A stretch of DNA of 64,000 bases from Squalus acanthias (taxonomy: Eukaryota), in the NCBI GenBank assembly GCA_030390025.1, contig CM059432.1:48982001-49046000 (forward strand). The letters run 5' to 3'. The notes under the pieces are model-generated. The model was not told the origin of the DNA and did no database searches. It worked only from the letters and a program-made list of their open reading frames with translations. This document shows positions 6,972 through 61,469 of the stretch, piece by piece. A program made the position numbers and the translations under genes. Positions within the stretch are counted from its first letter, which is position 1. Each line of letters opens with the position of its first letter.

Positions 6972-9085
6972 AGCCAGGCATTGACCATCTCCAACAAGAG
7001 AGAGTTTAACCACCTCCCTATGGCATTACCATTGCTAAATCTACCTGTCGCAGATGCATCTGTCCATGACAGTATTAATAGCAGTGACCACCGTACAGTC
7101 CCGTCTTCACACCGAGGACACCCTCCATCGTGTTGTGTGGCACTACCACCGTGCTAAATGGGATAGATTCAGAACAGATCTAGCAGCTCAAAACTGAGCA
7201 TCCATGAGGCGCTGTGGGCCATCAGCAGCAGCAGAATTGTATTCCACCACAATCTGTAACCTCATGGCATATCCCTCACTCTCCCATTACCATCAAGCCA
7301 GGGGACTAACCCTGGTTTAATAAGGAGTGTAGAAGAGCATGCCAGGAGCAGCACCAGGCGTACCTAAAAATGAGGTGCCAACCTGGGAAGCTGCAACACA
7401 GGACTACATGCATGCTAAATAGCAGAAGCAGCATGCTATAGACAGGGCTAAGCGATCCCACAATCAACGGATCAGATCAAAGCTCTGCAGTCCTGCCACA
7501 TCCAGTCGTGAATTAAACAACCATCAAACAACTAACGGGAGGAGGAGGCTCCATGAATATCCCCATCCTCAATGATGGTGGAGCCCAGCACGTGAGTTTA
7601 AAAGACAAGGCTGAAGCGTTTGCAACCATCTTCAGCCAGAAGTACAGAGTGGATGATCCATATCGGCCAACTCCTGCGGTCCCCACCATCACAGAAGCCA
7701 GTCTTCAGCCAATTCGATTGACTCCACGTGATATCAAGAAACGGCTGAGATCACTGGATACAGTAAAGGCTATGGGCCCTGACAACCTCCCGGCTATCGT
7801 GCTGAAGACTTGTGCTCCAAAATTAGCCACGCCTCTAGCCAAACTGTTCCAGTACAGCTACAACACTGGCATCTATCCGACAATGTGGAAAACTGCCCAG
7901 GTGTGTCCTGTCCACAAAAAGCAGGACAAATCCAATCCGGCCAATTACCGCCCCAAGAGTCTACTCTCAATCATCAGCAAAGTGATGGAAGGTGTCATCG
8001 AAAGTGCTATCAAGTGGCACTTACTCACCAATAACCTGATCACTGATGCCCAGTTTGGGTACCGCCAAGACCACTCGGCTGCCGACCTCATTACAGCCTT
8101 GGTCCAAACATGGACAAAGGAGCTGAATTCCAGAGGTGAAGTGAGAGTGACTGCCCTTGACATCAAGGCAGCATTTGACTGAGTGTGGCATGAAGGAGCC
8201 CTAGTAAAACTGAAGTCAATGGGAATCGGGGGCAAAACTCTCCACTGGCTGGAGTCATACCTAGCGCAAAGGAAAATGGTTGTGGTGATTGAAGGTCAAT
8301 CATGACAGCCCCAGGACATTGCAGCAGGAGTTCCTCAGGGCAGTGTCCTAGGCCCGACCATCTTCAGCTGCTTCATCAATGACCTTCCCTCCAACATAAG
8401 GTCAGAAATGGGGATGTTCGCTGATGACTGCACAGTGTTCAGTGCCATTCACAACTCCTCAGATAATGAAGCAGTCCATGCCCGCATGCAACAAGACCTG
8501 GACAACGTTCAGGCTTGGGCTGATAAGTGGCAGGTAACATTCGTGCCACAGAAGTGCCAGGCAATGACTATCTCCAACAAGCGAGAGTCTAACCACCGCC
8601 CCTTGACATTCAATGGCATTACCATCACCGAATCCCCCACCATCAACATCCTGGAGGTCACCATTGACCAGAAACTTAACTGGACCAGCCACATAAATAT
8701 TGTGGCAACAAGAGCAGGTCAGAGGCTAGGAATTCTGCGGCGAGTGTCTCACCTCCTGGCTCCCCAAAGCCTCTCCACCATCTACAAGGCACAAGTCAGG
8801 AGTGTGATGGGATACTCCCCAGTTGCCTGGGAGGGTGCAGCTGTAACATCAATCAAAAAGCTCAACACCATCCAAGACAAAGCAGTCCGTTTGATTGTCA
8901 GCACATCCACCACTTTAAATATTTAGTCCCTGTGCCACCGGCATACCGTGGGGATAGTTTGTACAATTTACAGGATGCACTGCAGCAACTCGCCAAGGCT
9001 TCTTCGACAGCATCTCCTAAATCTCCACCACCTAGATGCAAAAAGGCAGGAGGTGCATGGGAATACCATCAACTCCAAATTTCCC
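6972..9085 (+). mobile_element. CR1/L2-group LINE family A, disrupted ORF2 (RT)
   Basis: ORFs 7553-8182 and 8408-8926 (NYRPKSLLS, ALDIKAAFD, MFADD); [10 protein letters not shown] lies between them; stops and frameshifts. Confidence 0.93.
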
Positions 9086-12063
9086 TCCATTCCTTCATTC
9101 TAATAAGAATGAAACCGGACGGACCACCCGGCATCGACCTCGGCACTGGCTACTGACATGGCAATGGCACACCCAGCCCAGTCAACCCTGCAAAGTCCTC
9201 CTCACCAACATCTGGGGATTTGTGCCAAAATTGGGAGAGCTGTCCCACAGACTAGTCAAGCAACAGCCTGACATAGTCATACTCACAGAATCATACCTTT
9301 CAGCCAATGTCCCAAACTCCTCCATCACTATCCCTGGGTTTGTCCTATCCCACTGGCAGGACAGACCCTCCAGAGGTGGCGGCACAGTAGTATACAGTCG
9401 GGAGGGAATGGCCCTGGGAGTCCTCAACATTGACTCCGGACCCCATGAAGTCTCATGGCTTCAGGTCAAGCATGAGCAAGGAAACCTCCTGCTGATTACC
9501 ACCGACCGATCTCCCTCGGCTGATGAATCAGTACTCCTCCATGTTGAACACCACTTGGAAGAAGCACTGAGAGCAACAAGGGCACAGAATGTACTCTGGG
9601 TGGGGGACTTCAATGTCCATCACTAGGAGTGGCTCAGTAGCACCACTACTGACCGAGCTGGCCTGGTCCTGAAGGACATAACTGCCAGTCTGGGCCTACG
9701 ACAGGTGGTGAGAGAACCAACACGAGGGAAAAACCTACTTGGCCTTGTCCTCACCAATCTACCTGTCGCAGATGCATCTGTCCATGACAGCATTGGTAGC
9801 AGTGACCACCGCACAATCATTGTGGAGACGAAGTCCCGACTTCACACTGAGGACACCCTCCATCGTGTTGTGTGGCACTACTGCCGTGCTAAACGGGATA
9901 GATTCGGAACAGATCTAGCAGCTCAAAACTGGGCATCCATGAGGCGCTGTGGGCCATTCGCAGCAGCAGAATTGTATTCCACCACAATCTGTAAACACAT
10001 GGCCCGGCATATCCCTCACTCTACCATTACCACCAAGCCAGGGGACCAACCCTGGTTCAACAAGGAGTGTAGAAGAGCATTCCAGGAGCAGCACCAGGCA
10101 TACCTAAAAATGAGATGCCAACCTGGGGAAGCTGCAACACAGGATTACATGCATGCTAAAAAGCAGAAGCAGCATGCTATAGACAGGGCTAAGCAATCCC
10201 ACAATCAACGGATCAGATCAAAGCTCTGTAGTCTTGCTACATCCCGTTGTGAGTGGTGGTGGACCATTAAACAACTGACGGGAGGAGGAGGCTCCAAGAA
10301 CATCCCCATCCTCAATGATGGTGGAGCCCAGCTCGTGAGTGCAAAAGACAAGGCTGAAGCGTTTGCAACCAACTTCAGCCAGAAGTGCCGAGTGGATGAT
10401 CCATATCGGCCTACTCCTGAGGTCCCCACCATCACAGAATCCAGTCTTCAGCCAATTCAATTCACTCCACGTGATATCAAGAAACGGCTGAGCGCACTGG
10501 ATACAGCAAAGGCTGTGGGCCCCAACAACATCCTGGCTATCATGCTGAAGCTTGTGCTCCAGAACTAGCCGTGCCTCTAGCCAAGCTATTCCAGTACAGC
10601 TACAACACTGGCATCTATCCGACAATGTGGAAAACTGCCCGGGTATGTCCTGTCCACAAAAAGCAGGACAAATCCAACCCAGCCAATTACCGCCCCATCA
10701 GTCTACTCTCAATCATCAGCAAAGTGATGGAAGGTGTCATCGAAAGTGCTATCAAGTGGCACTTACTCACCAATAACCTGATCACTGATGCCCAGTTTGG
10801 GTTCCGCCAAGACCACTCGGCTCCCGACCTCATTACAGCCTTGGTCCAAACATGGACAAAGGAGCTGAATTCCAGAGGTGAGGTGAGAGTGACTGCCCTT
10901 GACTTCAAGGCAGCATTTGACCGAGTGTGGCATCAAGGAGCCCGAGTAAAACTGAAGTCAATGGGAATCAGGGGGAAAACGCTCCACTGGCTGGAGTCAT
11001 ATCTAGCACAAAGGAAGATGGTTGTGGTGGTTGAAGGTCAATCATCACAGCCACAGGACATCGCTGCAGGAGTTCCACAGGGCAGTGTCCTAGGCCCAAC
11101 CATCTTCAGCTGCTTCATCAGTGACCATCCCTCCAACATAAGGTCAGAAATGGGGATGTTCGCTGATGACTGCACAGTGTTCCGCACCATTCACAACTCC
11201 TCAGACAATGAAGCAGTCCATGCCCGCATGCAACAAGACCTGGACGACGTTCAGGCTTGGGCTGATAAGTGGCAGGTAACATTTGCGCCAGAGAAATGCC
11301 AGGCAATGACTATCTCCAACAATCAAGAGTCTAACCACTTCCCCTTGACATTCAATGGCATTACCATTGCTAAATCCCCCACTATCAACATCCTGGGGGT
11401 CACCATTAACCAGAAACTTAACTGGACCAGCCACATAAATACTGTGGCAACAATAGCAGGTCAGAGGCTAGGCATTCTGCGGCGAGTGTCTCACCTCCTG
11501 ACTCCCCAAAGCCTTTCCACCATCTACAAGGCACAAGTGAGGAGTGTGATGGAATACTCTCCACTTGCCTGGATGAGTGCAGCTCCAACAACACTCAAGA
11601 AGCTCAACACCATCCAGGACAAAGCAGCCCGCTTGATTTGCACCCCATCCACCATCTTAAACATTCACTCCCTCCACCACCGATGTACCGTGGCTGCAGT
11701 GTGTACCATCTACAAGATGCACTGCAGCAACTCGCCAAGGCTTCTTCGGCAGCACATCCCAAACCCGCAACCTCTTCCACCTAGAAGGACAAGGGCAGCA
11801 GGTGCATGGGAACACCATCACCTCCAAGTTCCCCTCCAAGTCACACGCCATCCTGACTTGGAAATATATTGCCGATCCTTCCTCGTCGCTGGGTCAAAAT
11901 CCTGGAACTCCCTCCCTAACAGCACTGTGGGACTACCATCACCACACGGACTGCAGCGGTTCAAGAATGCGGCTCACCACCACCTTCTCAAGGGCAACTA
12001 GAGATGGGCAATAAATGCTGGCATTGCCAGCGACGCCCAGATCCCATAAACAAATTTTTAAAA
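9086..12063 (+). mobile_element. LINE family A, near-complete ORF2 (APE endonuclease + RT), frameshifted
   Basis: ORFs 9036-9626 (ILTESYL, GGGTVVY, VGDFNVHH), 9705-10568 (SDH), 10571-12001 (RT motifs); 3' end GGGCAATAAATGCTGGC; head-to-tail with the previous copy. Confidence 0.95.
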
Positions 12064-12292
12064 AGTCACACACGATCCCAACTTGGATATATATCGCTGT
12101 TCATTCATTGTTGCTGGGTCAAATTCCTGGAACTCCCTACCTAGCAGCACTGTTGGAGTACCTTCAGCATATGGATTGCCGCAGTTCAAGATGAAAGCTC
12201 ACCACCACCTTCTCAAGGGCAACTAGGAATGGGCATAAATGCTGGCCTTGCTAGCGATGCCCATATCCCGAGAATGAATAAATGAAAATAAA
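12064..12292 (+). mobile_element. Additional LINE family A 3'-end fragment
   Basis: Diverged repeat of 11838-12050 ending GGCCTTGCTAGCGATGCCCATATCCC. Confidence 0.85.
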
Positions 12293-26667: not shown

Positions 26668-26924
26668 AGGAAAGAAAGAAAGACTTGCATTTATATAGCA
26701 CCTTTCACGACCACCGGACGTCCCAAAACGATTTACAGCCAATGAAGTACTTTTTGAAGTGTAGTCACTGTTGTAATGTAGGAAACTTGGCACCTAATTT
26801 GCGCACTGATAGCTCCCACAAACAGCAATGTGATAATGACCAGAGAAAGCGTTTTAGTGATGTTGGTTGAGGGATAAATATTAGCCAGGAGAACGGGGAT
26901 AACTCCCCTGCTCTTCTTGGAATA
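26668..26924 (-). mobile_element. Deu-domain SINE 3' half
   Basis: Reverse complement of ~20990-21245; ends at the PLE insertion site. Confidence 0.85.
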
Positions 26925-26976
26925 AAAATGAGAAGTCGCACAACACCAGGTTATAGTCCAACAGTTTTATTTAAAA

Positions 26977-27013
26977 TTACAAGCTTTCGGAGCTCCGCTC
27001 CTTCTTCAGGTAA
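26977..27013 (-). ncRNA. Minimal hammerhead ribozyme motif (PLE family 1)
   Basis: Minus strand: UUAC-CUGAAGA-A-GGAGC-GGA-GCUCC-GAAAGCUU-GUAA. Confidence 0.8.
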
Positions 27014-27246
27014 AGGTACAGTGAGGGAATCTATTACACAGTATATATACACAGAGAACAATTTGTCTGCAGAGATACAATCTGTTAGGGAGGCATTACA
27101 TCAAAGACACATCAGAGTACAGCTAAGACAATGAGGTCGGTCACAGGGGGTCCAACGTGTCAAATGCTGCCGTCTGCAGTTAAGCTTTAAACTTTTTTTT
27201 TTGGTGTTTTTTTTAAAAAACTGTAAAGACAGACAACGATGTCGAG

Positions 27247-28881
27247 TCACGTTCTGTAGCGTGACATGAACCCGAGATCCCTATTGAAGCCGTCCTCATG
27301 GGTGCGGAACTTGGCTATCAGTTTCTGCTCGATGATTTTGCGTTGTCGTGTGTCTCGAAGGCCGCCTTGGAGAACGCTAACCCGCAGATCCGAGGCTGAA
27401 TGTCCTTGACTGCTGAAGTGTTCCCCGACTGGGAGGCAACCATCCTGCCTGGCAATTGTTGCGCGGTGTCCGTTCATACGTTGTCTCAGTGTCTGCATGG
27501 TCTCGCCGATGTACCATGCCGCGGTGCATTCTTTCCTGCAATGTATGAGGTAGACAACGTTGGCTGAGTCACATGAGTATGTACCATGTACCTGGTGGGT
27601 AGTGTCCTCAGGTGTGATGATGGTATCTGTGTTGATGATCTGGCATGTCTTGCAGAGGTTGCCGTGGCAGGGTTGTGTGGTGTCGTGGTCGCTGTTCTCC
27701 TGACAGCTGGGTAATTTGCTGCAAACGATGGTACTTTTGAGGTTAGGCGGCTGCTTGAAAGCGAGTAGTGGAGGCGTGGGGATGGCCTTAGCAAGGTGTT
27801 CATCATCATCGATGACATGTTGAAGGCTGCGAAGAACATGGCGTAGTTTCTCCGCTCCGGGGAAGTACTGGACGACGTAGGGTACTCTGTTGGTTGTGTC
27901 CCGTGTTCGCCTTCTGAGGAGGTCTATGCGGTTTTTCGCTGTGGCCCATCGGAACTGTCGATTGACGAGTCGAGCGTCATATCCCGTTCTTACGAGGGCG
28001 TCTTTCAGCGTCCGTAGGTGTCCAAAGCGTTCCTCCTCGTCTGAGCAGATCCTGTGTATTCGCAGGGCTTGTCCATAGGGGATGGCTTCTTTAACGTGGT
28101 TAGGGTGGAAGCTGGAGAAGTGGAGCATCGTGAGGTTGTCCGTGGGCTTGCGGTAGAGTGAAGTGCTGAGGTGTCCGTCTTTGATGGAGATTCGTGTGTC
28201 CAAGAATGAAACCGATTCTGAGGAGTAGTCCATGGTGAGTTTGATGGTGGGATGGAACCTGTTGATGTTATCGTGTAGTCCTTTCAGTGATCCTTCGCCA
28301 TGGGTCCAAAGGAAGAAGATGTCGTCGATATATCTGGTGTACAGCGTTGGTTGGAGGTCCTGTGCAGCGAAGTAGTCTTGCTCGAACTTGTGCATGAAGA
28401 TGTTGGCGTATTGGGGTGCGAATTTGGTCCCCATGGCTGTTCCGTGTGTTTGGGTAAAAAACTGGTTGTCGAAGGTGAAGACATTGTGGTCAAGGATGAA
28501 GCGGATGAGTTGTAGGATGGCGTCTGGAGATTGGCTGTTGTTGGTGTTGAGTACTGAGGCTGTCGCAGCGATGCCGTCATCGTGGGGGATATTGGTGTAG
28601 AGTGCCGATACGTCCATTGTGGCGAGGAGTGTTCCTGGTTCAACTGGTCCATGGGTGCTGAGTTTCTGCAAGAAGTCTGTAGTGTTGCGACAGAAGCTGG
28701 GGGTTCCCTGTACGATGGGTTTCAGGATGCCCTCGACGTACCCAGAGAGGTTCTCACACAGGGTTCCGTTGCCTGATACGATAGGACGTCCGGGTGTGTT
28801 GGCTTTGTGTATCTTTGGGAGGCAGTAGAAGTCTCCTACGCGGGGAGTACGTGGGATGAGAGCGCGTAGGATGTTTTGAAG
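27247..28881 (-). CDS. Uninterrupted but 5'-truncated PLE reverse transcriptase + GIY-YIG endonuclease
   Basis: FYCLPKIHK..PGRPIVS, ATMDVSALYTNI, QTHGTAMG, RYIDDIF, FLD, YRKPT, CHGNLCKTC linker, VVYLIHC...WYIGET...RMNGH...HFSSQGH. Confidence 0.93.
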   Translation of the reverse strand, partial: LQNILRALIPRTPRVGDFYCLPKIHKANTPGRPIVSGNGTLCENLSGYVEGILKPIVQGTPSFCRNTTDFLQKLSTHGPVEPGTLLATMDVSALYTNIPHDDGIAATASVLNTNNSQSPDAILQLIRFILDHNVFTFDNQFFTQTHGTAMGTKFAPQYANIFMHKFEQDYFAAQDLQPTLYTRYIDDIFFLWTHGEGSLKGLHDNINRFHPTIKLTMDYSSESVSFLDTRISIKDGHLSTSLYRKPTDNLTMLHFSSFHPNHVKEAIPYGQALRIHRICSDEEERFGHLRTLKDALVRTGYDARLVNRQFRWATAKNRIDLLRRRTRDTTNRVPYVVQYFPGAEKLRHVLRSLQHVIDDDEHLAKAIPTPPLLAFKQPPNLKSTIVCSKLPSCQENSDHDTTQPCHGNLCKTCQIINTDTIITPEDTTHQVHGTYSCDSANVVYLIHCRKECTAAWYIGETMQTLRQRMNGHRATIARQDGCLPVGEHFSSQGHSASDLRVSVLQGGLRDTRQRKIIEQKLIAKFRTHEDGFNRDLGFMSRYRT

Positions 28882-29241
28882 GTTCTCCAAGGTGGCCTTC
28901 GAGACACACGACAACGCAAAATCATCGAGCAGAAACTGATAGCCAAGTTCCGCACCCATGAGGACAGCCTCAATAGGGATCTCGGGTTCATGTCACACTA
29001 CAGAACGTGACTCGACATCGTTGTCTGTCTTTCCAGTTTTTAAAAAAATCACCAAAAAAAAAAGTTAAAAGCTTAACTGCAGACGGCAGCATTTGACACG
29101 TTGGACCCCCTGTGACCCACCTCATTGTCTTAGCTGTATCTGATGTGTCTTTGATGTAATGCCTCCCTAACAGATTGTATCTCTGCAGACACATTGCTCT
29201 CTGTGTATATATACTGTGTAATAGATTCCCTCACTGTACCT

Positions 29242-29278
29242 TTACCTGAAGAAGGAGCGGAGCTCCGAAAGCTTGTAA
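29242..29278 (+). ncRNA. Minimal hammerhead ribozyme motif (PLE family 1)
   Basis: UUAC-CUGAAGA-A-GGAGC-GGA-GCUCC-GAAAGCUU-GUAA. Confidence 0.8.
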
Positions 29279-29374
29279 TTTTAAATAAAACTGTTGGACT
29301 ATAACCTGGTGTTGTGCGACTTCTCATTTTTGTCCACCCCAGTCCAACACCGGCATCTCCGCTTCTTGGAATAG

Positions 29375-33451: not shown

Positions 33452-33733
33452 CACCATGGTGGTTATATTACTGGACTAGTAATTCAGAGGCCAGAACTAA
33501 TAATCTGGAGACGTGAGTTCAAATCCCGCCATTGCAGTTTGTGAATTATAATTCAGTTAATTAAATAAATCTGGAATAAAAAGCTAGTATCAGTAATGGT
33601 GACCATGAAGCTATTGTAAAAACCCATCTGGTTCACTAATGTCTTTTAGGGAAGGAAACCTGCTGTTCTTACCCGGTCTGGCCTATCTGTAACTCCAGAC
33701 CCACAGCAAGGTGGTTGATATTTAACTGCCCTC
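33452..33733 (+). mobile_element. tRNA-derived SINE 5' part fused to a LINE A body
   Basis: GGTGGTTATATTACTGGACTAGTAA...GAGTTCAAATCCC (B-box-like)...GGGAAGGAAACCTGC; related SINE at 54955-55215. Confidence 0.75.
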
Positions 33734-35297
33734 TGGGGACTTGTACCAGAATTGGGAGGGCTGTCCCACAGACTTGTGAAGTAACAGCCTGACATAGGTA
33801 TGATCCTGTGTGCATGACTATCAATAAATGTCCTAGACTCCTCCATCACTATCCCTGGGTATGTCCTTTCCCACTGGCAGCACAGTGGTATACAGTCGGG
33901 AGAGAGTGGCCCTGGAAGCCCTCAACATTGACTATGGACCCCACAAACTCTCATGGCATCAGGTCAAACATGGACAAGGAAACCTCCTACTGATTAAAGT
34001 GATGAAAGTTGTTATCGACTATGCTATCAAGTGGCACTTACTCACCAAAAACCTCTTCACCGATGCTCAGTTTGGGTTCCAACAGGGTCACTCGGCTCTA
34101 GATCTCAATACAGCCTTGGTCCAAAAATGGACAAAAAATCTGAATTGCAGAGGTAAGGTGAGAGTGACTGCACTTAACATCAAGGCAGAATTTCACCGTA
34201 AAATTGAAGTCAATGGGAATCAGTGGGAAAACTATCCACTGGCTGGAGTCATACCTAGTATAAAGTAAGTTGGTGGTAGTTGTTGGAGGCCAATCATCTC
34301 AGCCCAGGACATCGCTGCAGCAGTTCCTCAGCCATCTTCAGCTACTTCATCAATGATCTTCCCTCCATCATTAGTTCAGAGGTGGGGATGTCTGCTGATG
34401 ATTACACAGTGTTCAGTTTCATTCGCAACTCCTCAGATAATGAAGCAGTCCGTGTCCGCATGCAGCAAGACCTGGACAACATCCAGGTGTGGGCTGATAA
34501 GTGGCAAGTAACATTTGCGCCACACAAGTGCCATGTAATGTCCATCTTCAACAAGAGAGAGTCTAACCAGCTCTCCTTGACATTCAATAGAGTTACCATT
34601 GTTGAATCCCCCACCATCAACACCCTGGGGGTCACCATTTATCAGAAACTTAACTGGACCAGCCACATAAATACTGTGGCTACATCAGCAGGTCAGAGGC
34701 TGGGTATTCTGCAGCGAGTGTCTCACCTCCTGACTCCCCAAAGCCTTTCCACCATCTACAAGGCAAAAGTAAGGAGTGTGATGGAATACTCTCCACTTGC
34801 CTGGATGAGTGCAGCTCCAACAACACTCAAGAAGCTTGACACCATCCAGGACAAAGCAGCCTAATTGATTGGCATCCCATCCACCACCTTTAACATTCAC
34901 TCCCTCCACCACCGGCACACCGTGGCTGCAGTGTGTACCATCCACAAGATGCACTGCAGCAACTCGATAAGCCTTCTTCGACAGCAGCTCCAAACCCGCG
35001 ACCTCTACCATCTAGAAGGACAAGGGCAGCAGGCACATGGGAACACCACCACCTCGAAGTTCCCCTCCAAGTCACACACCATCCTGACTTGGAAATATAT
35101 CACCGTTCCTTCGTCGTCACTGGGTCAAAATCCTGGATCTCCCTCCCTAATAGCACTGTGGGAGTACCTTAATCACACAAACTGCAGCGGTTAAAGAAGG
35201 TGGTTCCCCACCAGCTTCTCGAGGGCAATTAGAGATGGGCAATAAATGCAGGCCTTGCCAGCGATGCCCACATCCTATGAATGTATAAATAAAAAAT
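33734..35297 (+). mobile_element. LINE family A with internal deletions
   Basis: Endonuclease start (HQVKHGQGNLLLI) joined directly to RT (KVMKVVIDYAIKWHLL) near 33996; 3' end present. Confidence 0.9.
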
Positions 35298-38700: not shown

Positions 38701-39357
38701 TAAATTCAGGACCCTAGTCTCTGAGTCAACTACTTCACTCTCCATCTTAATGAAGAATTCTATCATATTATGATCACTCCGACCCAAGGGGCCTCGCACA
38801 ACAAGATTGCTAATTAATCCTTTCTCATTACATAATACCCAGTCTTAGATGGCCTGATCTCTAATTGGTACCTCGACATATTGGTCCAGGAAACCATCCC
38901 GTATACACTCCAGGAATTCTCCTCCACAGTATTGTTACTAATTTGGTTAGCCCAATCTATATGTAGATTAAAGTCACCCATGATAACTGCTGTGCTCTTA
39001 TTGCACGGTTCTCTAATTTCCCTTTTAATGCCATCCCCAACCTCCGTATTACTGTTTGGGGGTCTATACACCACTCCCACTAACGTTTTCTGCCCCTTGG
39101 TATTTCTCAGTTCTGCCCACACAGATTCCACATCATCAGAGCTAATATCCTTCCTTACAATTGTGTTAATCCCCTCTTTAACCAGCAATGCTACCCCACC
39201 TCCTTTTCCTTTTTGCCTATCTTTCCTGAATATTGAATACCCCTGTATGTTGAGTTCCCAGCCTTGGTCACCCTGGAGCCATGTTTCCGTAATCCCAATC
39301 ATATCATATTCGTTTACCTCTATTTGCGCAGTTAATTCATCCACCTTATTACAAATG

Positions 39358-40232
39358 TGAGAAGTCACACAACACCAGGTTATAGTCCAACAGATTTATT
39401 TAAAATTACAAGCTTTCGGAGCTATCCTGCCCCTTCTTCAGGTAAAGTTATTGTGAGAGAATCTACCAGAATTCACAGAATATAAACACAGAGAAAATGC
39501 AGAGATTCAATCTTTCCCTACATCAAAGACACACTAAGAGCACAGCCAAGACAATGAGATGTGTCCCAGGGAGTCCAACGTGTCAAAACACCTGCTGGCT
39601 GCATATCCTCTCCATTTGGGTTTGTTTTTTGTGTTTGTTTCTTGTGTTTGTTTTTTTTTTAAAACTGGAAAGACAGGCAACGATGTCAAGTCACGTTCTG
39701 TAGCGTGACATGAACCCGATATCCCGATTGAGGCCGTCCTCATGAGTGCGGAACTTGGCTATCAGTTTCTGCTCCATGATTTTGCGTTGTCGTGTATCCC
39801 AAAGGCCGCCTTGGAGAACGCTAACCCGCAGATCCGAGGCTGAATGCCCTTGACTGCTGAAGTGTTCCCCGACTGGGAGGCAACCATCCTGCCTGGCGAT
39901 TGTTGCGCGGTGTCCGTTCATACGTTGTCTCAGTGTCTGCATGGTCTCGCCGATGTACCATGCTCTGGGGCATCCTTTACTGCAACGTATCAGTTAGACA
40001 ACGTTGGCCGAGTCACATGAGTATGTACCATGTACCTGGTGGGTAGTGTCCTCACGTGTGATGACGGTATCTGTGTTGATGATCTGGCATGTCTTGCAGA
40101 GGTTGCCGTGGCAGGGTTGTGTGGTGTCGTGGTCGCTGTTCTCCTGACAGCTGGGTAATTTGCTGCGAACGATGGTACTTTTGAGGTTAGGCGGCTGCTT
40201 GAAGGCGAGTAGTGGAGGCGTGGGAATGGCCA
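39358..40232 (-). mobile_element. Penelope-like element family 1, single-arm insertion D (no tail, no inversion)
   Basis: GIY-YIG region (ORFs 39691-39942, 39994-40254); 12-bp TSD TTATTACAAATG at 39346-39357 and 40233-40244. Confidence 0.95.
39406..39445 (-). ncRNA. Minimal hammerhead ribozyme motif (PLE family 1)
   Basis: Minus strand: UUAC-CUGAAGA-A-GGGGC-AGGAUA-GCUCC-GAAAGCUU-GUAA. Confidence 0.78.
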
Positions 40233-41193
40233 TTATTACAAATGCTCCTCGCATTAAGACACAAAGCCTTCAGGCTTGTTTTTTTAACGCTCTTAGACCT
40301 TTTAGAATTATTATTTACTGTGGCCACGTTTGATTTAAACCCTTGATTTCTCTGACTGCCACCTTTGTTTTTTTCCTTCCTGACTTTTGCTTCTATCCTT
40401 GTTTCCCTTTCCTCTGTCTCCCTGCACAGGTTCTCAACCCCCTGCCATTTTAGTTTAAACCCTCCCCCAGAGCACTAGCAATTATTGAGCATTACATTAC
40501 ATTTTAAAGTAGCGCGTCACGAAGCGTGGACAGATCAGTGGCATATTACAGTAGAGCCCTTCCAGGGTCTCCAAGCTCTTTCACTGTGTGCTGACTCCCT
40601 GCAAAGAGGCTTGATCTACATTGCCCAGTTTATTTGGTTGACCTGAACACTTGAGACAATGAGAAAATCGTGGATTTGCACAAATACTTAGTAGCATACT
40701 ATTTAAGTTGATTACAATATGATAATTAAGCTGACCTAAGGCTAAGACCTAGCGTATCCGCGTTCTGGCATAGTTTCTGGCCCTTCCAGCAAAATCTCAT
40801 TGAACTTATAGTGGGAGTACACCAGAAGGACCACAGTTTTCAAGCCAAAGGGTTTAAAGGCCAAACTATTGGCCTTGAAAGGAGGAACCAAGCTATTTTT
40901 GAACAAACGCTGTCTGTGTGACTTAATCAGCTAAATATATAATAACCAATTATCTTTGAATTCAACTGTCGGGTAAGTTATCAGAAAATAATCGAACTGA
41001 TTAGAATCTTCACAGGAAAAGTTAAGGTAGACTAGCTAGCTTCCATAGTCAGAAAGATTACAAGAAAGAAAAGTATTATGCGTATCTAAAAGTTATCTAT
41101 AAAGGCATAGCTTACAACAACAGCAACTTGCATTTATATAGCGCCCTTAACATAGTAAAACATCCCAAGGCACTTCACAGGAACGTTATCAAA

Positions 41194-44100
41194 CCTACTT
41201 GACCTCGTGCTCACCAATCTACCTGTCGCAGATGCATCTGTCCATGACAGCATTGGCAGCAGTGACCACCGCACAGTCATTGTGGAGACGAAGTCGAAGT
41301 CCCATCTTCACACTGAGGACACCCTCCATCGTGTTGTGTTGAACTACCACCGTGCTAAATGGGATAGATTCAGAACAGATCTAGCAGCTCAAAACTGGGC
41401 ATCCATGAGACGCTGTGGGCCATCAGCAGCAGCAGAATTGTATTCCACCACAATCTGTAACCTCATGGCCCGGCATATCCCTCACTCTACCATTATCACC
41501 AAGCCAGGAGACCAACCCTGGTTCAATAAGGAGTGTAGAAGAGCATGTTGGGAGCAGCACCAGGCATACCTAAAAATGAGGTGCCAACCTGGAGAAGCTG
41601 CAACACAGGACTACATGCATGCTAAAAAGTGGAAGCAGCATGCTATAGACAGGGCTAAGCGATCCCACAATCAACGGATCAGATCAAAGCTCTGCAGTCC
41701 TGCCACATCCAATCGTGAATGGTGGTGGACCATTAAACAGCTAATGGGAGGAGGAGGCTCCATGAATATTCCCATCCTCAATGATGGTGGAGCCCAGCAC
41801 GTGAGTGCAAAAGACAAGGCTGAAGCGTTTGCACGTGATATCAAGAAACGGCTGGGCCCACTGGATACAGCAAAGGCTATGGGCCCCGACAACATCCCGG
41901 CTATCGTGCTGAAGACTTGTGCTCCAGAACTAGCCGCGCCTCTAGCCAAGCTGTTCCAGTACAGCTACAACACTGGCATCTATCCGACAATGTGGAAAAC
42001 TGCGCAGGTGTGTCCTGTCCACAAAAAGCAGGACAAATCCACTCCGGCCAATTACCGCCCCATCAGTCTACTTTCAATCATCAGCAAAGTGATGGAAGGT
42101 GTCATCGACAGTGCTTTCAAACGGCACTTACTCACCAATAACCTGCTCACTGATGCCCAGTTTGGGTTCCGCCAAGACCACTCGGCTCCAGACTTCATTA
42201 CAACCTTGGTCCAAACATGGACAAAGGAACTGAATTCCAGAGGTGAGGTGAGAGTGACTGCCCTTGACATCAAGGCAGCATTTGACCGAGTGTGGCATGA
42301 AGGAGCCCTAGTAAAACTGAAGTCAATGGGAATCAGGGGGAAAACGCTCCACTCGCTGGAGTCATACCTAGCACAAAGGAAGATGGTTGTGGTGATTGAA
42401 GGTCAATCATCACAGCCCCAGGACATCGCTGCAGGAGTTCCTCAGGGGAGTGTCCTAGGCCCAACCATCTTAGAAACATAGAAACATAGAAGATAGGAGC
42501 AGGAGTAGGCCATTCGGCCCCTCGAGCCTGCTCCACCATTCGATGAGATCATGGCTGATCATCCAAACTCAGTACCTTGTACCTGCCTTCTCCCCATATC
42601 CCTCGATACCTTTAGCCTTAAGAAATATATCTAACTCATTCTTGAATATATTTAATGACTTGGCCTCAACTACCTTCTGTGGTAGAGAATTCCACAGGTT
42701 CACCACTCTCTGGGTGAAGAAATTCTTCCTCATTTCTGTCCTAAATGGCTTACCCCTTATCCTTAGACTGTGACCCCTGGTTCTGGACTCTCCGACCATC
42801 GGGAACATTCTTCCTGCATCTAGTTTGTCCAGACCTGTCAGAATTTTATATGTTTCGATGAGATCCCCTCTCATTCTTCTATACTCCAGCGAGTATAAGC
42901 CCAATCGACCCAATCTCTCCTCATATGTCATTCCTGCCATCCCAGGTATCAGCCTTGTGAATCTTCGCTGAACTCCTTCCATGGCAAGAACATCCTTCCT
43001 CAGATAAGGCGACCAAAACTGCACACAGTACTCAAGGTGTGGTCTCACCAAGGCCCTGTACAACTGCAGCAGGACATCCCTGTTCCTATACTCAAACCCT
43101 TTCGCTATGAAGGCCAACATACCATTTGCCTTCTTCACCGCCTGCTGCACCTGCATGCTTACTTTCAGCGACTGGTGCACAAGGACACCCAGGTCTCGTT
43201 GCACTTCCCCTTCTCCCAATCTATTGCCATTCAGATAATAATCTGCCTTCCTGTTTTTGACACCAAAGTGGATAACCTCGCACTTATCCACATTATATTG
43301 CATCTGCCACGCTTCTGCCCACTCACCCAACCTGTCCAAATCATCCTGGAGTTTCTCGGTATCCTCCTCGCAGCCCACACTCCCACCCAGCTTTGTGTCA
43401 TCTGCAAACTTGGAGATATTACATTTAGTTCCCTTATCTAGATCATTAATGTATATTGTGAATAGCTGGGGTCCAAGGACCAATCCCTGCGGTACCCCAC
43501 TAGTCACTGCTTGCCACTCGGAAAAAGACCCATTAATTCCTACTCTCTGCTTTCTGTCCGCCAACTAGTTCTCTATCCAAGTCAATACCTTGCCCCCAAT
43601 CCCATGTGCCTTAACTTTACACGCTAATCTCTTATGCGGGACCTTATCGAAAGCCTTTTGAAAGTCCAAATACACCACATCTACTGGTTCTCCCTTATCT
43701 ATTTTCCCAGTTACATCCTCAAAAAATTCCAGTAGATTAGTCAAGCACGATTTACCTTTTGTAAATCCATGTTGACTTTGTCCGATCCTGTCACTGTTTT
43801 TCAAGTGCTCAGCTATTATATCCTTTATAATGGACTCTAGCATTTTTCCCTAATACCGATGTCAGGCTTACCGGTCTGTAATTCCCCGCTTTCTCTCTAC
43901 CACCCTTTTTGAATAGTGGGGTAACATTAGCTACCCTCCAATCCATGGGTACAGTTCCAGATTCCATCGAATGTTGGAAGATGATCAGCAATGCATCTAC
44001 TATTTCTAGGCCCACTTCCTTAAGTACCCTAGGATGTAGATTATCAGGCCCTGGGGATTTATCGGCCTTCAATCCTGTCAATTTCCCTAACACCATTTCC

Positions 44101-46048
44101 CTGCAAATACTGATTTCTTTCAGTTCCTCCCTTTCAATCGACCGTATGTTCTCCAACATCTCTGGGAGGTTATTTGTGTCCTCCTTTGTGAAGACAGAAC
44201 CAAAATATGCATTTAATTGGGCTGCAATTTCTTTGTTCCCCATTATAACTTCCCCCGCTTCTGACTGCAAGGGACCTACACTTGATTTCACTAATCTTTT
44301 TCTCTTCGCATATCTATAAAAGCTCTTACAGTCAGTTTTTATGTTCCCAGCAAGCTTACTTTCATATTCTATTTTCCCCTTCTTAATTAATCCATTTGTC
44401 CTCCTTTGTTGAATCCTAAACTGCTCCCAATCCTCAGGGCGACCGCTTTTTCTGGCCAATTTATATGCCCTCTCCTTGGATCTTATGCTATCCCTAATTT
44501 CCCTTGTTAGCCACGGTTGAGTCACCCTTTTTGTTTTATTCTTATGCCACACTGGGATGAACAAATTCTGTAGTTCATCCATGCAGTCTTTGAATGTTTG
44601 CCATTGCCTATCCACCGTCAACCCTTTGAGTGACATTCCCCAATCAATCCTACCCAATTCGCGCCTCATACCATCGTAGTTTCCTTTATTTAAATTCAGG
44701 ACCCTAGTCTCTGATTCAACTACTTCACTCTCCATCCTAATGAAGAATTCTATCATATTATGATCACTCTGACCCAAGGGGCCTCGTACAACAAGTTTGC
44801 TAATTAATCCTTTCTCGTTACATAATACCCAGTCTAAGATGGCCTGATCTCTGGTTGGTTCCTCGACATATTGTTCCAGAAAACCATCTCATAAACATTC
44901 TAGGAATTCCACCTCCACAGTATTTTTACTAATTTGGTTAGCCCAATCTATATGTAAATTAAAGTCACCCATGATGACTGCTGTGCCCTTACTGCATGCT
45001 TCTCTAATTTCCCTTTTAATTCCGTCCCCAACCTCCGTATTACTGTTTGGAGGTCTATATACCACTCGCACTAACGTTTTGTGCCCCATGTTATTTCTCA
45101 GTTCTACCCGTACAGATGCTTCATCAATGACCTTTCCTCCAACATAAGGTCAGGAATGGGGATGCTCGCTGATGACTGCAGTGTTCAGTGCCATTCACAA
45201 CTCCTTAGATAATGAAGCAGTCCATGCCCGCATGCAACAAGACCTGGACGACGTTCAGGTTTGGGCTGCTAAGTGGCAGGTAACATTCACGCCACACCAG
45301 TGCCAGGCAATGACTATCTCCAACAATCGAGAGTCTAACCACCGCCCCTTGACATTCAACAGCATTACCATCGCTGAATCCCCCACCATCAACATCCTGG
45401 GGGGTCACCATTGACCAGAAACTTAACTGGACCAGCCACATAAATACTGTGGCAACAAGAGCAGGTCAGAGGCTAAGTATTCTGTGGCGAGTGTCTCACC
45501 TCCTGACTCACCAAAGCCTTTCCACCATCTACAAGGCACAAGTCAGGAGTGTGATGGAATACTCTCCACTTGCTGGGATGAGTGCAGCTCCAACAACACT
45601 CAAGAAGTTCGACACCATCCAGGACACAGCAACCTATCCACCACCTTAAACATTCGCTCCCTCCACCACCGGCGTACCGTGGCTGCAGTGTGTACCATCT
45701 ACAAGATGCACTGCAGCAACTCGCCAAGGCTTCTTAGGCAGCACCTCCCAAACCCGCGACCTCTTCCACTTAGAAGAACAAGGGCAGCAGGCGCATGGGA
45801 ACACCACCACCTCCAAGTTCCCCTCCAAGTCACACACCATCCTGACTTAGAAGTATATCGCCGATCCTTCATTGTCGCTGGTTTAAAATCCTGGAACTCC
45901 CTACCTAACAGCACTGTGGGAGTACCTTCAACATGCGGACTGCAGCGGTTCAAGAAGGTGGCTCACCACCACCTTCTCAAGGGCAACTAGGGATGGGCAA
46001 TAAAAGCTGGCCTTGCCAGCGACGCCCACATCCCATAAGCGAATTTTA
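41194..46048 (+). mobile_element. LINE family A (41194-42471 plus 45117-46048) interrupted by CR1
   Basis: ORF 41207-42481 ends at GSVLGPTI; sequence resumes GCTTCATCAATGACC at 45117 and runs to the family 3' end. Confidence 0.93.
42472..45116 (-). mobile_element. CR1 LINE, 5'-truncated, close relative of 36508-40480
   Basis: ORFs 42569-43564, 43565-43843, 43809-44777, 44889-45089; 3' (TAGAAACA)n. Confidence 0.95.
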
Positions 46049-46985
46049 AACAAAAATTGGCACCGAGCGACATAAGGAGATATTAAGATAGGTAACCAAA
46101 AGCTTGGCGAAAGTGGTAGATTTGCATTACCACTAGATTGCATTCCTTTTATTGTATTGTTCCACAAGTTTATTTACTTTCTTCCATAAATATATAATTA
46201 TTTTATCAGTGTTAAATTATTTGGTTGTTGATTTCTTGTTTAATAAATTTGCTTAATATTTTGAACGTAAAATAATATCTAATGTGATGCTCGATTGCTT
46301 TTGAAGATTGATACATTCAAATAGCTTAAAAATAATTACCAGACTGTTGTTTATTATCCTGGGCATGTTACTAACATCTTTGCTGGATCTTGAGGTTCAG
46401 ATCGGCACTTTTGAAGGTATGGGAAGCTGGAACTTGCGAGTGATCTAAGCTATGAGAGCCGACACAATCTAGAGTCATAATAATAAAAAGACCCCAAAAT
46501 AACATACCTCATGGGTATAGTTCTTGTGCAGTGTCAAACCAGGCTTACAAAGTGCTCAGGGGATTTAGTGGATCTCTGAGACTATTTATAGATGTACTGT
46601 AAATTCCTCTATAAACATCATGTACATGAATAAATATCATTGATAAAAATTTAAATACCATCCATTTTGGCTGAGCAGCAGGAATTTTTTGCAAGTAAAT
46701 CGGCATTTTCTCCACTTTTATTGAGCCATTATGCACAAGTATTTGAGTGTCTGAGTGAATTTACCATCATTTCTACAGCTTAAATGGGAATTTGGCTGCT
46801 TGAGGAAGTGTGAAAGGAACATTATTACAGGAGAGTCATGACTGGCCAGTTCTCTCTGCTTCTCCTAATTAATTCATGTTTCACAAAATAGATCACATAA
46901 AAATCTTGATCAACCACCAATAAAATTCAATGAAAAAAATGCCTCTTTTGTCTTTTCTACTCATCTTTATTTGCCTCAAGACTTT

Positions 46986-47171
46986 GGTCTAGAAATTCGT
47001 CTCAGGCGGTGGCGCAAAACGGGCGGTATCGGATCGGCCGCCCGCTGTACGCAGTGCCCAATATTCAGATCCACTGACTGCAATAGAACTGACTATCAGG
47101 GGCTGCATACAGCGGGCGGCCGATCCGATTCCTCCCGTTTTGCACCACCGCCCGAGACGAATGTCAAGGCC
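46986..47171. mobile_element. 186-bp palindromic Harbinger-type MITE
   Basis: GGTCTAGAAATTCGTCTC...GAGACGAATGTCAAGGCC with ~70-bp inverted arms; TSD TTT. Confidence 0.88.
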
Positions 47172-48181
47172 TTTGACTGGTTATAACATAATTGTGGAAA
47201 AGACCTGCAAGAGTTAGTCTCATAGGAAGCTGTATTAACAGCAGTAGAGAAGCAGCCATTATCCTAGGAGACTTCTTCAGTAAATTTAGGCCAGGAAAGT
47301 CCCCAGAGCTGCTGCCACTCTGCCACCATAACTTAACCAGAAGTGTGACAGAAACCCCATTTACGCCTGTAATCAGTGTTTCCGTCGCACTTGTGGTGCA
47401 GTAATAGCAGCGGAGTGTGAGCAGCTTTGAGGAAATGCCTGACCTTGTTGTTTCAACTGTTTTCTACTTTGTCCCCCCGACACTGTCAAGTAACACATAT
47501 CCCTGCCCATTCTTCCAATGGTGCCAGGCACTCACATCAACTGAGTATGAGTGGTATCGGGGCTCATTTTGTTATACACACTTCAACCATACTATTTCAT
47601 CAAAATAAATCATAATCTCCTGATTTACTGACCCAAGTACCTGATTCAATAAAAATTCATACAAAAAGACAACTGGTTGCTGCTGAGTTACTAAATCAAG
47701 GCCTAGATTTTCCGCTCAGCCATTGTGCTGGTGGAAGTGCGACTGGGCGGGAGTTCTGCTGACTGTAAAGACGAACCCCTTGTCCTGGCTAATTTTCTGG
47801 GGTCAGGCTCATCAACAGGGTTGCAGAGATGGTTGTGGCTGGATTTGTAGTAGGCTGAATGCAAGAAACAAAACTGTATTTTTTTTTAAAGTGCTTTGGC
47901 CTGTAGTATCAATCACATTATAATTGACTGCATAGGCTTTCCGGCTAGTTACATTTTAAATCCCCTTCCGCTGCCCTACACACGGAACACACATGCATTG
48001 CTTGCGTTCAGTTTCGCTCGGACCCAAATGATGAGTATTTACATTGTGTGATGTACTTCTGTGATTTGGATGCCATGTGAATACACCTGCCCATAATTCG
48101 GAGATGCCGGTGTTGGACTGGGGTGGACAAAAATGAGAAGTCGCACAACACCAGGTTATAGTCCAACAGTTTTATTTGAAA

Positions 48182-48223
48182 TCACAAGCTTTCGGAGCTA
48201 TCGATCGCCCCTTCCTCAGTTGA
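48182..48223 (-). ncRNA. Minimal hammerhead motif with one stem I mismatch
   Basis: Minus strand: UCAA-CUGAGGA-A-GGGGC-GAUCGAUA-GCUCC-GAAAGCUU-GUGA. Confidence 0.65.
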
Positions 48224-48367
48224 AGTAAAGAGATACAGAATCGCCAAAGCATATATAGATAGAGAACAATGCATGTGTTACTTACAAAAGTAGTCGTCTG
48301 CTTTTGTAAGTAACACATGCATTGTTCTCTATCTATATATGCTTTGGCGATTCTGTATCTCTTTACT

Positions 48368-48409
48368 TCACCTGAGGAAGGGGCGATCGATAGCTCCGAA
48401 AGCTTGTGA
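48368..48409 (+). ncRNA. Minimal hammerhead ribozyme motif (PLE family 1)
   Basis: UCAC-CUGAGGA-A-GGGGC-GAUCGAUA-GCUCC-GAAAGCUU-GUGA. Confidence 0.78.
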
Positions 48410-49319
48410 TTTCAAATAAAACTGTTGGACTATAACCTGGTGTTGTGCGACTTCTCATTTCTGCCCATAATTGGCAGACCTATCCTATACTCCTGTCACT
48501 TCCGACAGAAAATCCAGGAAGTGTCAGGGGCAACTAAGGAGCTGGCAGAGTGATACCTGAAGAATTTTTCTGGCATTCCACTGGATTTAAACCTGCTCCA
48601 CGGTGTAACTCCTGAATTAAATCTAGGGTTATCATCCTGAAAATACTCTTGTGTTCAGTAACAAATTCAGTTTGTAGGTGTGTCGTGTGCATTCTGGGGG
48701 AGTTAATTAATGAATGGGAAATACAAAAGTCAAAAATTCACTGCTAACCAGTCAACTTTCCACGGGTGAACTTTGGACCTTTATTTATAGCACTCAGAAA
48801 TTCCAGACTTGCTATTACAGTGTTATGAAAATTTGTTAAACCCTTAACAAAATGAAATCAATGCATCTCTTCAAATACCTTGGTTTTATTTCTGGTTTCC
48901 TCTGCAATGTCTTTCTATTTTTTTCCTCATAGAGCAGCAGCATCATTGCAGACAGGGGTCTACTTTAATCTTCATTTTGCTTTGTCAGCAACGTAACAAA
49001 TTTGCATTTAATCCCCTTGGACATATCATTTCAGAAATATTCAATTCACACCAGAAAGTGCTACTGTCCCATCTCCTTTCCCAGCCAGTACTAGAATTTT
49101 GTCCCAGAGGTTTAATTCATTTGTGTATTTGTTCATGCTTAACAATGATCTCATTTGTAAACAAGTTATAGAAAACTATATTTCAACAAAAGCAATAAAA
49201 CGTTTAACAGCAATGTAAAAATAAGTGCAAATGTGAAAATTTTATACAGAATGTGCCAAACTGCACAGTGCTTTTGTCTTTCTCCGACGCGATTATATGC
49301 TGTAAGTGATTTTTTTAAG

Positions 49320-50165: not shown

Positions 50166-50169
50166 ATGG

Positions 50170-59100: not shown

Positions 59101-59345
59101 GCATTACACAAGGGAAATAGTTCCTATTTTTGCTGTAAATATGTGTTCACTGATTTTTGATAAATTCATTACATTTGTTTGGAATCTTTTGTGGTGTTTC
59201 TCATTTCAGCTTTGTGCCCAGGAGGACGCTGTGATATTCCATGACAGAAAGATGGTATGATGCGGAGATGCCGGTGTTGGACTGGGGTGGACAAAATTGA
59301 GAGGTCGCACAACACCAGGTTATAGTCCAACAGTTTTATTTTAAA

Positions 59346-59383
59346 TCACAAGCTTTCGGAGTTACAACTCCTTCGTCGGGTGA
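59346..59383 (-). ncRNA. Minimal hammerhead motif, variant core CCGACGA
   Basis: Minus strand: UCAC-CCGACGA-A-GGAGU-UGUA-ACUCC-GAAAGCUU-GUGA. Confidence 0.65.
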
Positions 59384-60158
59384 AGTGAGGAGATACAGAA
59401 TCGTCAAAGCATATATAGATAGAGAACAATGCATGTGTAACTTACAATTGCAGACAACTAAATTCAATCATCCTGACTGTTTATCTGCCGAGGTGTGATA
59501 AAGTTAATCAGGTCAGCCAGGAAGGTACCACATCAAAGACATAGCAAGATACAACTGAGACAATGAGGTGGAGTCGCATGGGGTCTAACGTGTCAAAAGC
59601 GGCCGTCTGTATGTAAAACGATTAACTTTAAAATTTTTACTTTTTTACTGGGAATCACATCTGTGAACAAGCCAACGACGACTCGAGTCCGGATCACGTC
59701 ATGTATCGTGACATAAACCCAAGATCCCGGTTGAGACCGTCTTCATGAGTGCGGAACTTGGCTATCAGTTTCTGCTCGATGATTTTGCGTAGTCGTGTTT
59801 TCCTAAGGCCGCCTTGGAGAACGCTTACCCGCAGATCCGAGGCTGAATGTCCTTGACTGCTGAAGTGTTCCCCGACTGGGAGGTAACAATCCTGCCTGGC
59901 GATTGTTGCGCGGTGCTCGTTCATACGTTGTCTCAGTGTCTGCATGGTCTCGCCGATGTACCATGCCGCGGTGCATTCTTTCCTGCAACGTATGAGGTAG
60001 ACAACGTTGGCCGAGTCACATGAGTATGTACCATGTACCTGGTGGGTAGTGTCCTCACGTGTGATGATGGTATCTGTGTTGATGATCTGGCATGTCTTGC
60101 AGAGTTTGCCGTGGCAGGGTTGTGTGGTGTCGTGGTCGCTGTTATCCTGAAAGCTGGG

Positions 60159-61051
60159 ACAACCTCACGATGCTCCACTTCTCCAGCTTCCACCCTAACC
60201 ACGTTAAAGAAGCCATCCCCTATGGACAAGCCCTGCGAATACACAGGATCTGCTCAGACGAGGAGGAACGCGATGGACACCTACGGACGCTGAAAAACGC
60301 CCTCGTAAGAATGGGATATGACGCTCGACTCATCGATCGACAGTTCCGACGGGCAAAAGCGAAAATTCGCATAGACCTCCTCAGAAGGCAAACACGGGAC
60401 ACAACCAACAGGCTACCCTACGTCGTCCAGTACTTCCCCGGAGCGGAGAAACTACGCCATGTTCTTCGCAGCCTTCAACATGTCATCGATGACGACAAAC
60501 ACCTCGCTAAGGCCATCCCCACGCCTCCACTACTTGCCTTCAAACAGCCGCCTAACCTCAGAAGTACCATCGTTCGCAGCAAATTACCCAGCTTTCAGGA
60601 TAACAGCGACCACGACACCACACAACCCTGCCACGGCAAACTCTGCAAGACATGCCAGATCATCAACACAGATACCATCATCACACGTGAGGACACTACC
60701 CACCAGGTACATGGTACATACTCATGTGACTCGGCCAACGTTGTCTACCTCATACGTTGCAGGAAAGAATGCACCGCGGCATGGTACATCGGCGAGACCA
60801 TGCAGACACTGAGACAACGTATGAACGAGCACCGCGCAACAATCGCCAGGCAGGATTGTTACCTCCCAGTCGGGGAACACTTCAGCAGTCAAGGACATTC
60901 AGCCTCGGATCTGCGGGTCAGCGTTCTCCAAGGCGGCCTTAGGAAAACACGACAACGCAAAATCATCGAGCAGAAACTGATAGCCAAGTTCCGCACTCAT
61001 GAAGACGGTCTCAACCGGGATCTTGGGTTTATGTCACGATACATGACGTGA
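60159..61051 (+). CDS. 5'-truncated PLE RT thumb + GIY-YIG, uninterrupted
   Basis: DNLTMLHFSSFHP...CHGKLCKTC...VVYLIRC...WYIGET...HEDGLNRDLG. Confidence 0.9.
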
Positions 61052-61361
61052 TCCGGACTCGAGTTGTCGTTGGCTTGTTCACAGATGTGATTCCCAGTAA
61101 AAAAGTAAAAATTTTAAAGTTAATCGTTTTACATACAGACGGCAGCTTTTGACACGTTAGACCCCATGTGACTCCACCTCATTGTCTCAGTTGTATCTTG
61201 CTATGTCTTTGATGTGGTACCTTCCTGGCTGACCTGATTAACTTTATCACACCTCGGCAGATAAACAGTCAGGATGATTGAATTTAGTTGTCTGCAATTG
61301 TAAGTTACACATGCATTGTTCTCTATCTATATATGCTTTGACGATTCTGTATCTCCTCACT

Positions 61362-61399
61362 TCACCCGACGAAGGAGTTGTAACTCCGAAAGCTTGTGA
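61362..61399 (+). ncRNA. Minimal hammerhead motif, variant core CCGACGA
   Basis: UCAC-CCGACGA-A-GGAGU-UGUA-ACUCC-GAAAGCUU-GUGA. Confidence 0.65.
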
Positions 61400-61469
61400 T
61401 TTAAAATAAAACTGTTGGACTATAACCTGGTGTTGTGCGACCTCTCAAGAAAGATGGTATGACAGGGAT

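Follow-up and report, generated by a model that had tools for sequence, protein, structure and literature searches.

Fold-back insertions of a Penelope-like element (PLE) in the shark genome almost always carry the element's tail on exactly one of their two arms. Among fold-backs sampled without regard to the tail, exactly one tail was present in 59 of 59, a pattern far beyond chance, and the one-sided tail is nearly obligatory in these products. Together with inverted stubs that consist only of the tail and with a symmetric target site, this exclusivity makes double priming, one reverse transcription start at each target end, a well-supported origin for the fold-backs.

The window, a 64,000-nt stretch of a 3.7-Gb genome (G000:C8:48982001-49046000; assembly GCA_030390025.1, contig CM059432.1), contains four insertions of the family (Table 1). 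A, B and C each consist of two 3′ ends facing outward within one TSD (12, 12, and 15 bp), located as claimed in the original prediction, and D is the single arm ending at the tail-less position that had been described, for which we found a 12-bp TSD. The tail is indeed shared by A, B and C but is not, as had been stated, identical to its end: in 79 pairs, its end varies from +34 to +47 relative to the common end, with a mode of +40. The tailed arm is the shorter in A and C, but the arms of B, thought to be equal, differ, the tail-less arm being approximately 10-13 nt longer. The two arms of A meet head to head with a 2-nt overlap at 28882-28883. A hammerhead-like motif is mirrored in each arm of sufficient length.

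Table 1. Positions of the four insertions and their parts within the window
Feature	Position	Strand	Remarks
A, left TSD copy	26913..26924	+	12 bp
A, tail-less long arm	26925..28883	-	3′ UTR plus 5′-truncated RT/GIY-YIG ORF; 3′ end leftward; measured 26929-28883, 1,955 nt
A, open ORF fragment	27247..28883	-	RT (Pfam RVT_1), Cx4CxxC linker, GIY-YIG-type endonuclease with two inner cysteines; motifs by eye against PMC8557442
A, tailed short arm	28882..29326	+	445 nt
A, minimal hammerhead-like motif	29241..29279	+	CUGANGA...GAAA, palindromic helix III; by eye, descriptor from PMC4209133
A, tail	29327..29361	+	pLTR end-to-ATG sequence of full-length copies; 3′ strand of predicted RNA hairpin
A, right TSD copy	29362..29373	+	12 bp
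B, fold-back	48087..48472		12-bp TSDs 48087-48098 and 48461-48472; tail at left, 48099-48133; tailed arm ~154 nt, tail-less arm ~167 nt
C, fold-back	59246..61462		15-bp TSDs 59246-59260 and 61448-61462; tail 59261-59297; tailed arm 59298-60158 (minus), 861 nt; tail-less arm 60157-61447 (plus), 1,291 nt
D, single tail-less arm	39346..40244	-	arm 39358-40231 between 12-bp TSDs

All four insertions are ends of an endonuclease-bearing (EN+) PLE. Across the 3.7-Gb genome, we counted 92,964 3′ ends of this family, 24,797 exact tails and 341 exact tail-to-ORF junctions. A full copy is a 3,136-nt unit in which the tail continues straight into the ATG of a single ORF, which specifies a reverse transcriptase (RT) and then a GIY-YIG endonuclease; in L174, the ORF is intact from the ATG (892 aa), and its RVT_1 match lies above the cut-off. 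A Pfam search of the ORF yielded no endonuclease match, and a PDB search gave no matches. By eye, the translation contains a GIY-YIG-type core (VVY...YIG), a CCHH motif with two cysteines between the GIY and YIG boxes, and a DKG motif, as judged against PMC8557442. The family also has other traits of EN+ PLEs: partial tandems that form pLTRs, an inverted truncated copy, and a tail of 30-40 bp. The Cx4CxxC linker between RT and endonuclease fits the Cx2-5CxxC of Neptune/Nematis (PMC8557442) and, as a motif read from the translation, points to Neptune/Nematis over Penelope/Poseidon. On this linker evidence, our early label of "Poseidon-type" was withdrawn (PMC8557442).

The hammerhead-like motif lies ~48-90 nt before the tail-less end; its core boxes and palindromic helix III were recognized by eye, and it had no Rfam match. 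In the predicted RNA fold, the tail-less end falls in the U-rich loop of a hairpin of which the tail would be the 3′ strand. The nine stem pairs of this hairpin are nearly invariant in 188 tailed ends, hence without covariation. Short arms cluster at 70-100 nt, just upstream of the hammerhead, and a TATA-like run is found ~25-30 nt further up. Tandem units inside one arm are identical or nearly so, and the partial unit upstream measures 85 to 1,703 nt, exceeding 500 nt in 14 of 29 cases. This pattern is consistent with a circular or end-jumping template, as proposed for PLEs (PMC4209133); tandem donors are another possibility.

At L181 (G000:C2:125823608-125824324), a 342-nt internally deleted unit made up of tail, ORF start and pLTR end occurs twice, with no differences, within one 11-bp TSD, and looks like a mini-circle or retrozyme-like product. 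At L188-L189 (G000:C2:211212540-211224478), one tail-less arm stands alone within a 12-bp TSD; it is 11.9 kb long and contains more than three near-identical units. At L196-L197 (G000:C3:118720000-118734000), at least three small fold-backs lie in a short-period satellite beside a two-unit element.

To count tails, we examined the sequence flanking the first 100 3′ ends listed irrespective of the tail, together with that flanking most of the first 100 tails. From the resulting 217 ends, we obtained 79 TSD-validated pairs, all of which had exactly one tail. The 59 fold-backs sampled without regard to the tail comprise 37 of these pairs, four with a short or diverged partner, and 18 from 45 regions chosen by ORF motif, with some listed ORF-motif places left out; for three of these 18 long fold-backs, the script placed the best-matching TSD within a simple repeat or at an offset that is unusual. 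A genome-wide pattern search limited to cores of 155-183 nt detected 7,911 fold-backs, 5,703 tail-plus-end matches, and 20 two-tail matches. On inspection, three of the 20 had an internal tail running into the ORF, three were inverted flank duplications, three had a partial tail, and 11 had two full tails. Only one of these 11, L252, lies within a clear TSD (13 bp), and there the two arms come from different lineages. Fold-backs with no tail on either arm numbered 0 of 59, a class bounded by this sample only. The prediction that one arm is tailed and the other is not was upheld: two-tailed fold-backs are infrequent, and no-tailed ones are absent from this sample.

What requires two starts is a set of insertions in which one arm is reduced to the tail. 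In the C1:12961800, C1:25181700, and C3:45769000 regions, and less cleanly at C1:1212760, a tail-only inverted stub lies within the TSD opposite a tail-less arm. Since a cDNA begun at the tail-less site has no tail from which such stubs could be templated, they must have been primed on their own at the other target end. Conversely, one tailed full-length arm bears a 5-nt inverted tail-less stub. These stubs, and the fact that arms exceed each other in either direction, rather than any set link between the tail and the short arm, support the two priming events at two target ends that had been put forward, and bear out the claim that cDNA snap-back alone is insufficient. The further suggestion that one priming is internal and the other terminal is imprecise; since the tail runs directly into the ORF's ATG, both sites are internal to a tandem RNA.

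Single arms were tail-less in 40 cases and tailed in six; the tail-less ones account for 18 of 20 full-length and 20 of 24 long single arms, plus L264 and L265. TSDs were located for 22 of 38 tail-less and two of six tailed single arms. The predominance of tail-less single arms suggests that the tail-less site (site 0) is used first.

The target itself is symmetric. TSDs were 12 bp in 38 of 79 insertions and 13 bp in 21. At the 38 sites with 12-bp TSDs, the flanks read CTGNC before and GNCAG after, forming the palindrome CTGNC-N12-GNCAG. The motif matched at 2.18 and 2.29 of four positions at the two nicks, compared to 0.95 and 0.92 in a control shifted seven bases outward (n = 38), and was equally strong on both sides (p = 0.60). 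One host site was struck in both orientations. From these features, we infer a symmetric, dimeric cut of the target; as a TSD is formed and both ends prime, the cut would leave 3′ overhangs. The same host repeat sites (L069, L070, L077, and others) were struck repeatedly by independent insertions, one 12-bp site at least five times.

We consider it somewhat likely that reverse transcription is primed from both ends of such a staggered, symmetric cut, with one start at the tail-less site and the other ~40 nt downstream, at the end of the tail, probably on the same RNA. A protein dimer would cut both strands, leaving 12-nt 3′ overhangs, the first of which would usually prime at site 0, in the U-rich loop of the end hairpin. 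With site 0 then occupied, the second overhang would be restricted to the +40 site, from which a second enzyme may trail along the same template, displacing the strand already made. The two copies would halt independently of each other, or at a shared block or the RNA end; head-to-head joining of their 3′ ends would then use either 0-6 nt of inverted microhomology or a short filler. Should the second priming fail, the product would be a single tail-less arm. Because the arms overlap on the template, use of one RNA needs strand displacement, a putative ability of these enzymes on which the one-RNA view relies. That the double priming is programmed, with a dimer, a symmetric cut, 12-nt 3′ overhangs, and two RTs that each start at a fixed site on one RNA, possibly a circle, with the first cDNA displaced by the second RT, is a more tentative proposal; if true, the tail, the inverted arm, and tandems of several units would all follow from one step.

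Several observations bear on whether one RNA or two serve as template. The strict pairing of one start of each kind is most simply fitted by one RNA. The arms of one insertion are nearly always of the same sub-lineage: at C1:223718385, they have no differences over 3,138 nt and 2-80 differences to other insertions, and among 36 long stems examined, the within-pair distance was far below the median distance to other copies in all 35 with comparators. Moreover, in four of 38 cases the ends of the long arms lie no more than 5 nt apart, where 0.24 are expected. On the other hand, gene conversion can make arms alike later. This may have occurred at L266 and L267 (G000:C1:2938165-2938476 and C1:3041753-3042064), which lie 104 kb apart and have a common 312-nt core and junction filler, different TSDs, and tails on opposite arms. 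The pair, whose junction occurs at only these two loci genome-wide, is better read as local gene conversion or a single re-insertion. We rejected the idea that fold-backs spread as self-propagating hairpin units, as this is the one clearly shared junction among 79. A role for RT jumps landing near the end of the partner arm was also set aside; it had two or three anecdotes in its favor, for which later deletion is possible.

Twin priming on two RNAs in one particle, mostly derived from a single donor locus, with an inherent asymmetry that assigns one to site 0 and the other to +40, is a less probable alternative. An RNA dimer, as the original prediction suggested, perhaps formed via the palindromic hammerhead helix III, would make strand displacement unnecessary, and minimal PLE hammerheads have been proposed to act as dimers (PMC4209133). 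Mixed arms point to a second template, at least sometimes: the one-tailed fold-back at C1:17375279 has arms from different sub-lineages, and the loop of hammerhead stem II differs between arms in 10 of 87 pairs. The sole TSD-flanked two-tailed case has arms of two lineages. However, two RNAs would need an extra rule against 0/0 and +40/+40 pairs (0 of 59; ~1 in 7,911), coincident ends of long arms are hard to obtain from independent templates, and in every comparable long stem, the two arms differ far less from each other than from the median other copy.

We regard as improbable a hybrid in which priming takes place at both ends, but the second arm is copied from one cDNA after it folds back on itself, leaving only a terminal piece such as the tail to be separately primed. 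Near-equal arms and small loops are in excess, as this would predict, and the arms are alike; at C1:2014097, a private internal rearrangement is common to both arms, and self-priming has been proposed for junction palindromes (PMC3846280). However, loops of 1-6 kb belong to either arm, arm-specific differences occur deep inside the stem, and a donor that was already rearranged explains C1:2014097 equally well.

The original prediction also held that the tail marks the shorter arm, and it had named a tail side random with respect to arm length as the contrary outcome. For 106 fold-backs that lie outside the window, we measured how far each arm reaches from the common end, scoring differences within 5 nt as ties. 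The tail-less arm was longer in 50, the tailed arm in 33, and 23 were ties; for differences of at least 100 nt, the counts were 21 versus 21. In the tail-independent subset, the tail-less arm was longer in 34 versus 18 fold-backs at differences greater than 5 nt (p = 0.036) and in 15 versus 11 at differences of at least 100 nt (p = 0.56). The proposed family rule therefore fails: large differences are random with respect to tail side, and a mild bias is left above 5 nt. The three cases in the window are a small-sample run atop this mild bias.

These counts omit four short fold-backs with unresolved arms, near-equal by eye; one secondary rearrangement (C1:22679300 region); two duplicate copies of one insertion; and seven of 36 full-length segments that are nested or complex, two of which look tailed-longer by eye. 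Two arm lengths were hand-corrected for nested inserts. When the tail is included, the tailed cDNA is the longer one in 57 of 74 fold-backs. Arm lengths are correlated (rho = 0.68, n = 74), driven by short copies, with rho = 0.38 in the 38 long ones. If arm length is set by where copying stops, tail side would be only loosely tied to it. A limit on the tailed arm by the upstream pLTR on a linear transcript was rejected, as tailed arms reach 0.4-6.8 kb.

It is very improbable that the tail is mechanistically tied to the shorter arm, with the exceptions due to later loop flipping or conversion. The mild overall bias is in line with such a tie, and one locus pair reveals that the tail side can switch around an identical core. 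However, the even split at large differences largely refutes it. In addition, the tailed arm is the longer in seven of nine fold-backs that contain a full unit, three of these seven with zero arm divergence and thus little time for later rearrangement. Removal of this rule eliminates a false lead.

The palindromes can hardly be assembly or library artefacts, since each fold-back has its own TSD in the target motif, a tail on one side only, a junction of its own, and arms that have diverged in an age-like manner, and contigs of two independent short-read runs hold minus-arm-to-plus-arm joints of other copies, although A's own junction was bridged by no short-read contig among those listed.

Parts of this picture are already published, namely the inverted layout, the one-sided tail, and two RT start sites. 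An inverted copy, often with the tail at one end only, has been described for EN+ PLEs, including Adineta Pen2a (PMC8557442, PMC3846280), and was attributed to endonuclease resolution or self-priming on an antisense template; the origin of tandem and inverted PLE insertions has been called unresolved (PMC8557442). In contrast to those complex insertions, where the one-sided tail is optional, it is nearly obligatory in the shark fold-backs, the target is palindromic around 12 bp, and tail side does not track arm length. In our literature search, which covered papers outside subscription, no paper was found to report that the two start sites pair strictly one of each, that the target is a 12-bp palindromic site, or that PLEs insert by twin priming, and the available text of a 2026 retrozyme preprint does not treat inverted arms.

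The closest biochemical parallel is PAc, a Poseidon element of Anolis carolinensis, for which the tail, within a stem-loop, is flanked in vitro by two internal sites of RT initiation, both strands of an AT-rich target are nicked and extended, and a dimer is predicted (PMC11167929). PAc belongs to the Penelope/Poseidon clade, whereas the shark ORF has the Cx2-5CxxC linker of Neptune/Nematis. No difference in start site was seen between the PAc strands, which counts against our preferred reading; pairing within one product was outside the tests reported, and inverted arms, site pairing within one insertion, and nick spacing are left aside in the available text (PMC11167929). The same in vitro system makes the mechanism testable, and our counts give sharp predictions: one start per site, a single RNA for each product, and two nicks separated by ~12 nt within a palindromic motif.

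The proposed mechanism works like twin priming, yet not in its LINE-1 form. The LINE-1 model was reportedly put forward by Ostertag and Kazazian in 2001. In LINE-1, the second priming can fall at various internal positions, and the two segments are not known to overlap. In the shark fold-backs, by contrast, the two sites lie at fixed positions 40 nt from each other, the arms do overlap, and approximately half of all 3′ ends are in such products. Overlap on the template was seen in nearly all fold-backs; the one exception, in the C1:25593100 region, could be a later deletion. Both systems can be set side by side in that LINE-1 twin priming also has both target ends priming on the RNA, with an inverted 5′ segment in one TSD and junction microhomology (PMC2837659).

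The family contributes tens of thousands of DNA palindromes to the genome. Some have been rearranged further: at L223 (G000:C1:22679300-22689200), a large secondary inverted duplication that includes flanking DNA is centred on a fold-back, and at L217-L218 (G000:C1:20117200-20128700), local duplication of the host region has left one fold-back in three copies. The window also contains repeats of other kinds. A 186-bp imperfect palindrome (46986-47171) with an 81% arm match is MITE-like and unrelated to the fold-backs, and a 56-bp tandem array occupies 218-454. Another abundant repeat family is present in direct and inverted copies that are 80-94% alike (7038-12288, 33732-35295, 41191-42471, 45113-46056, and 49327-50169).
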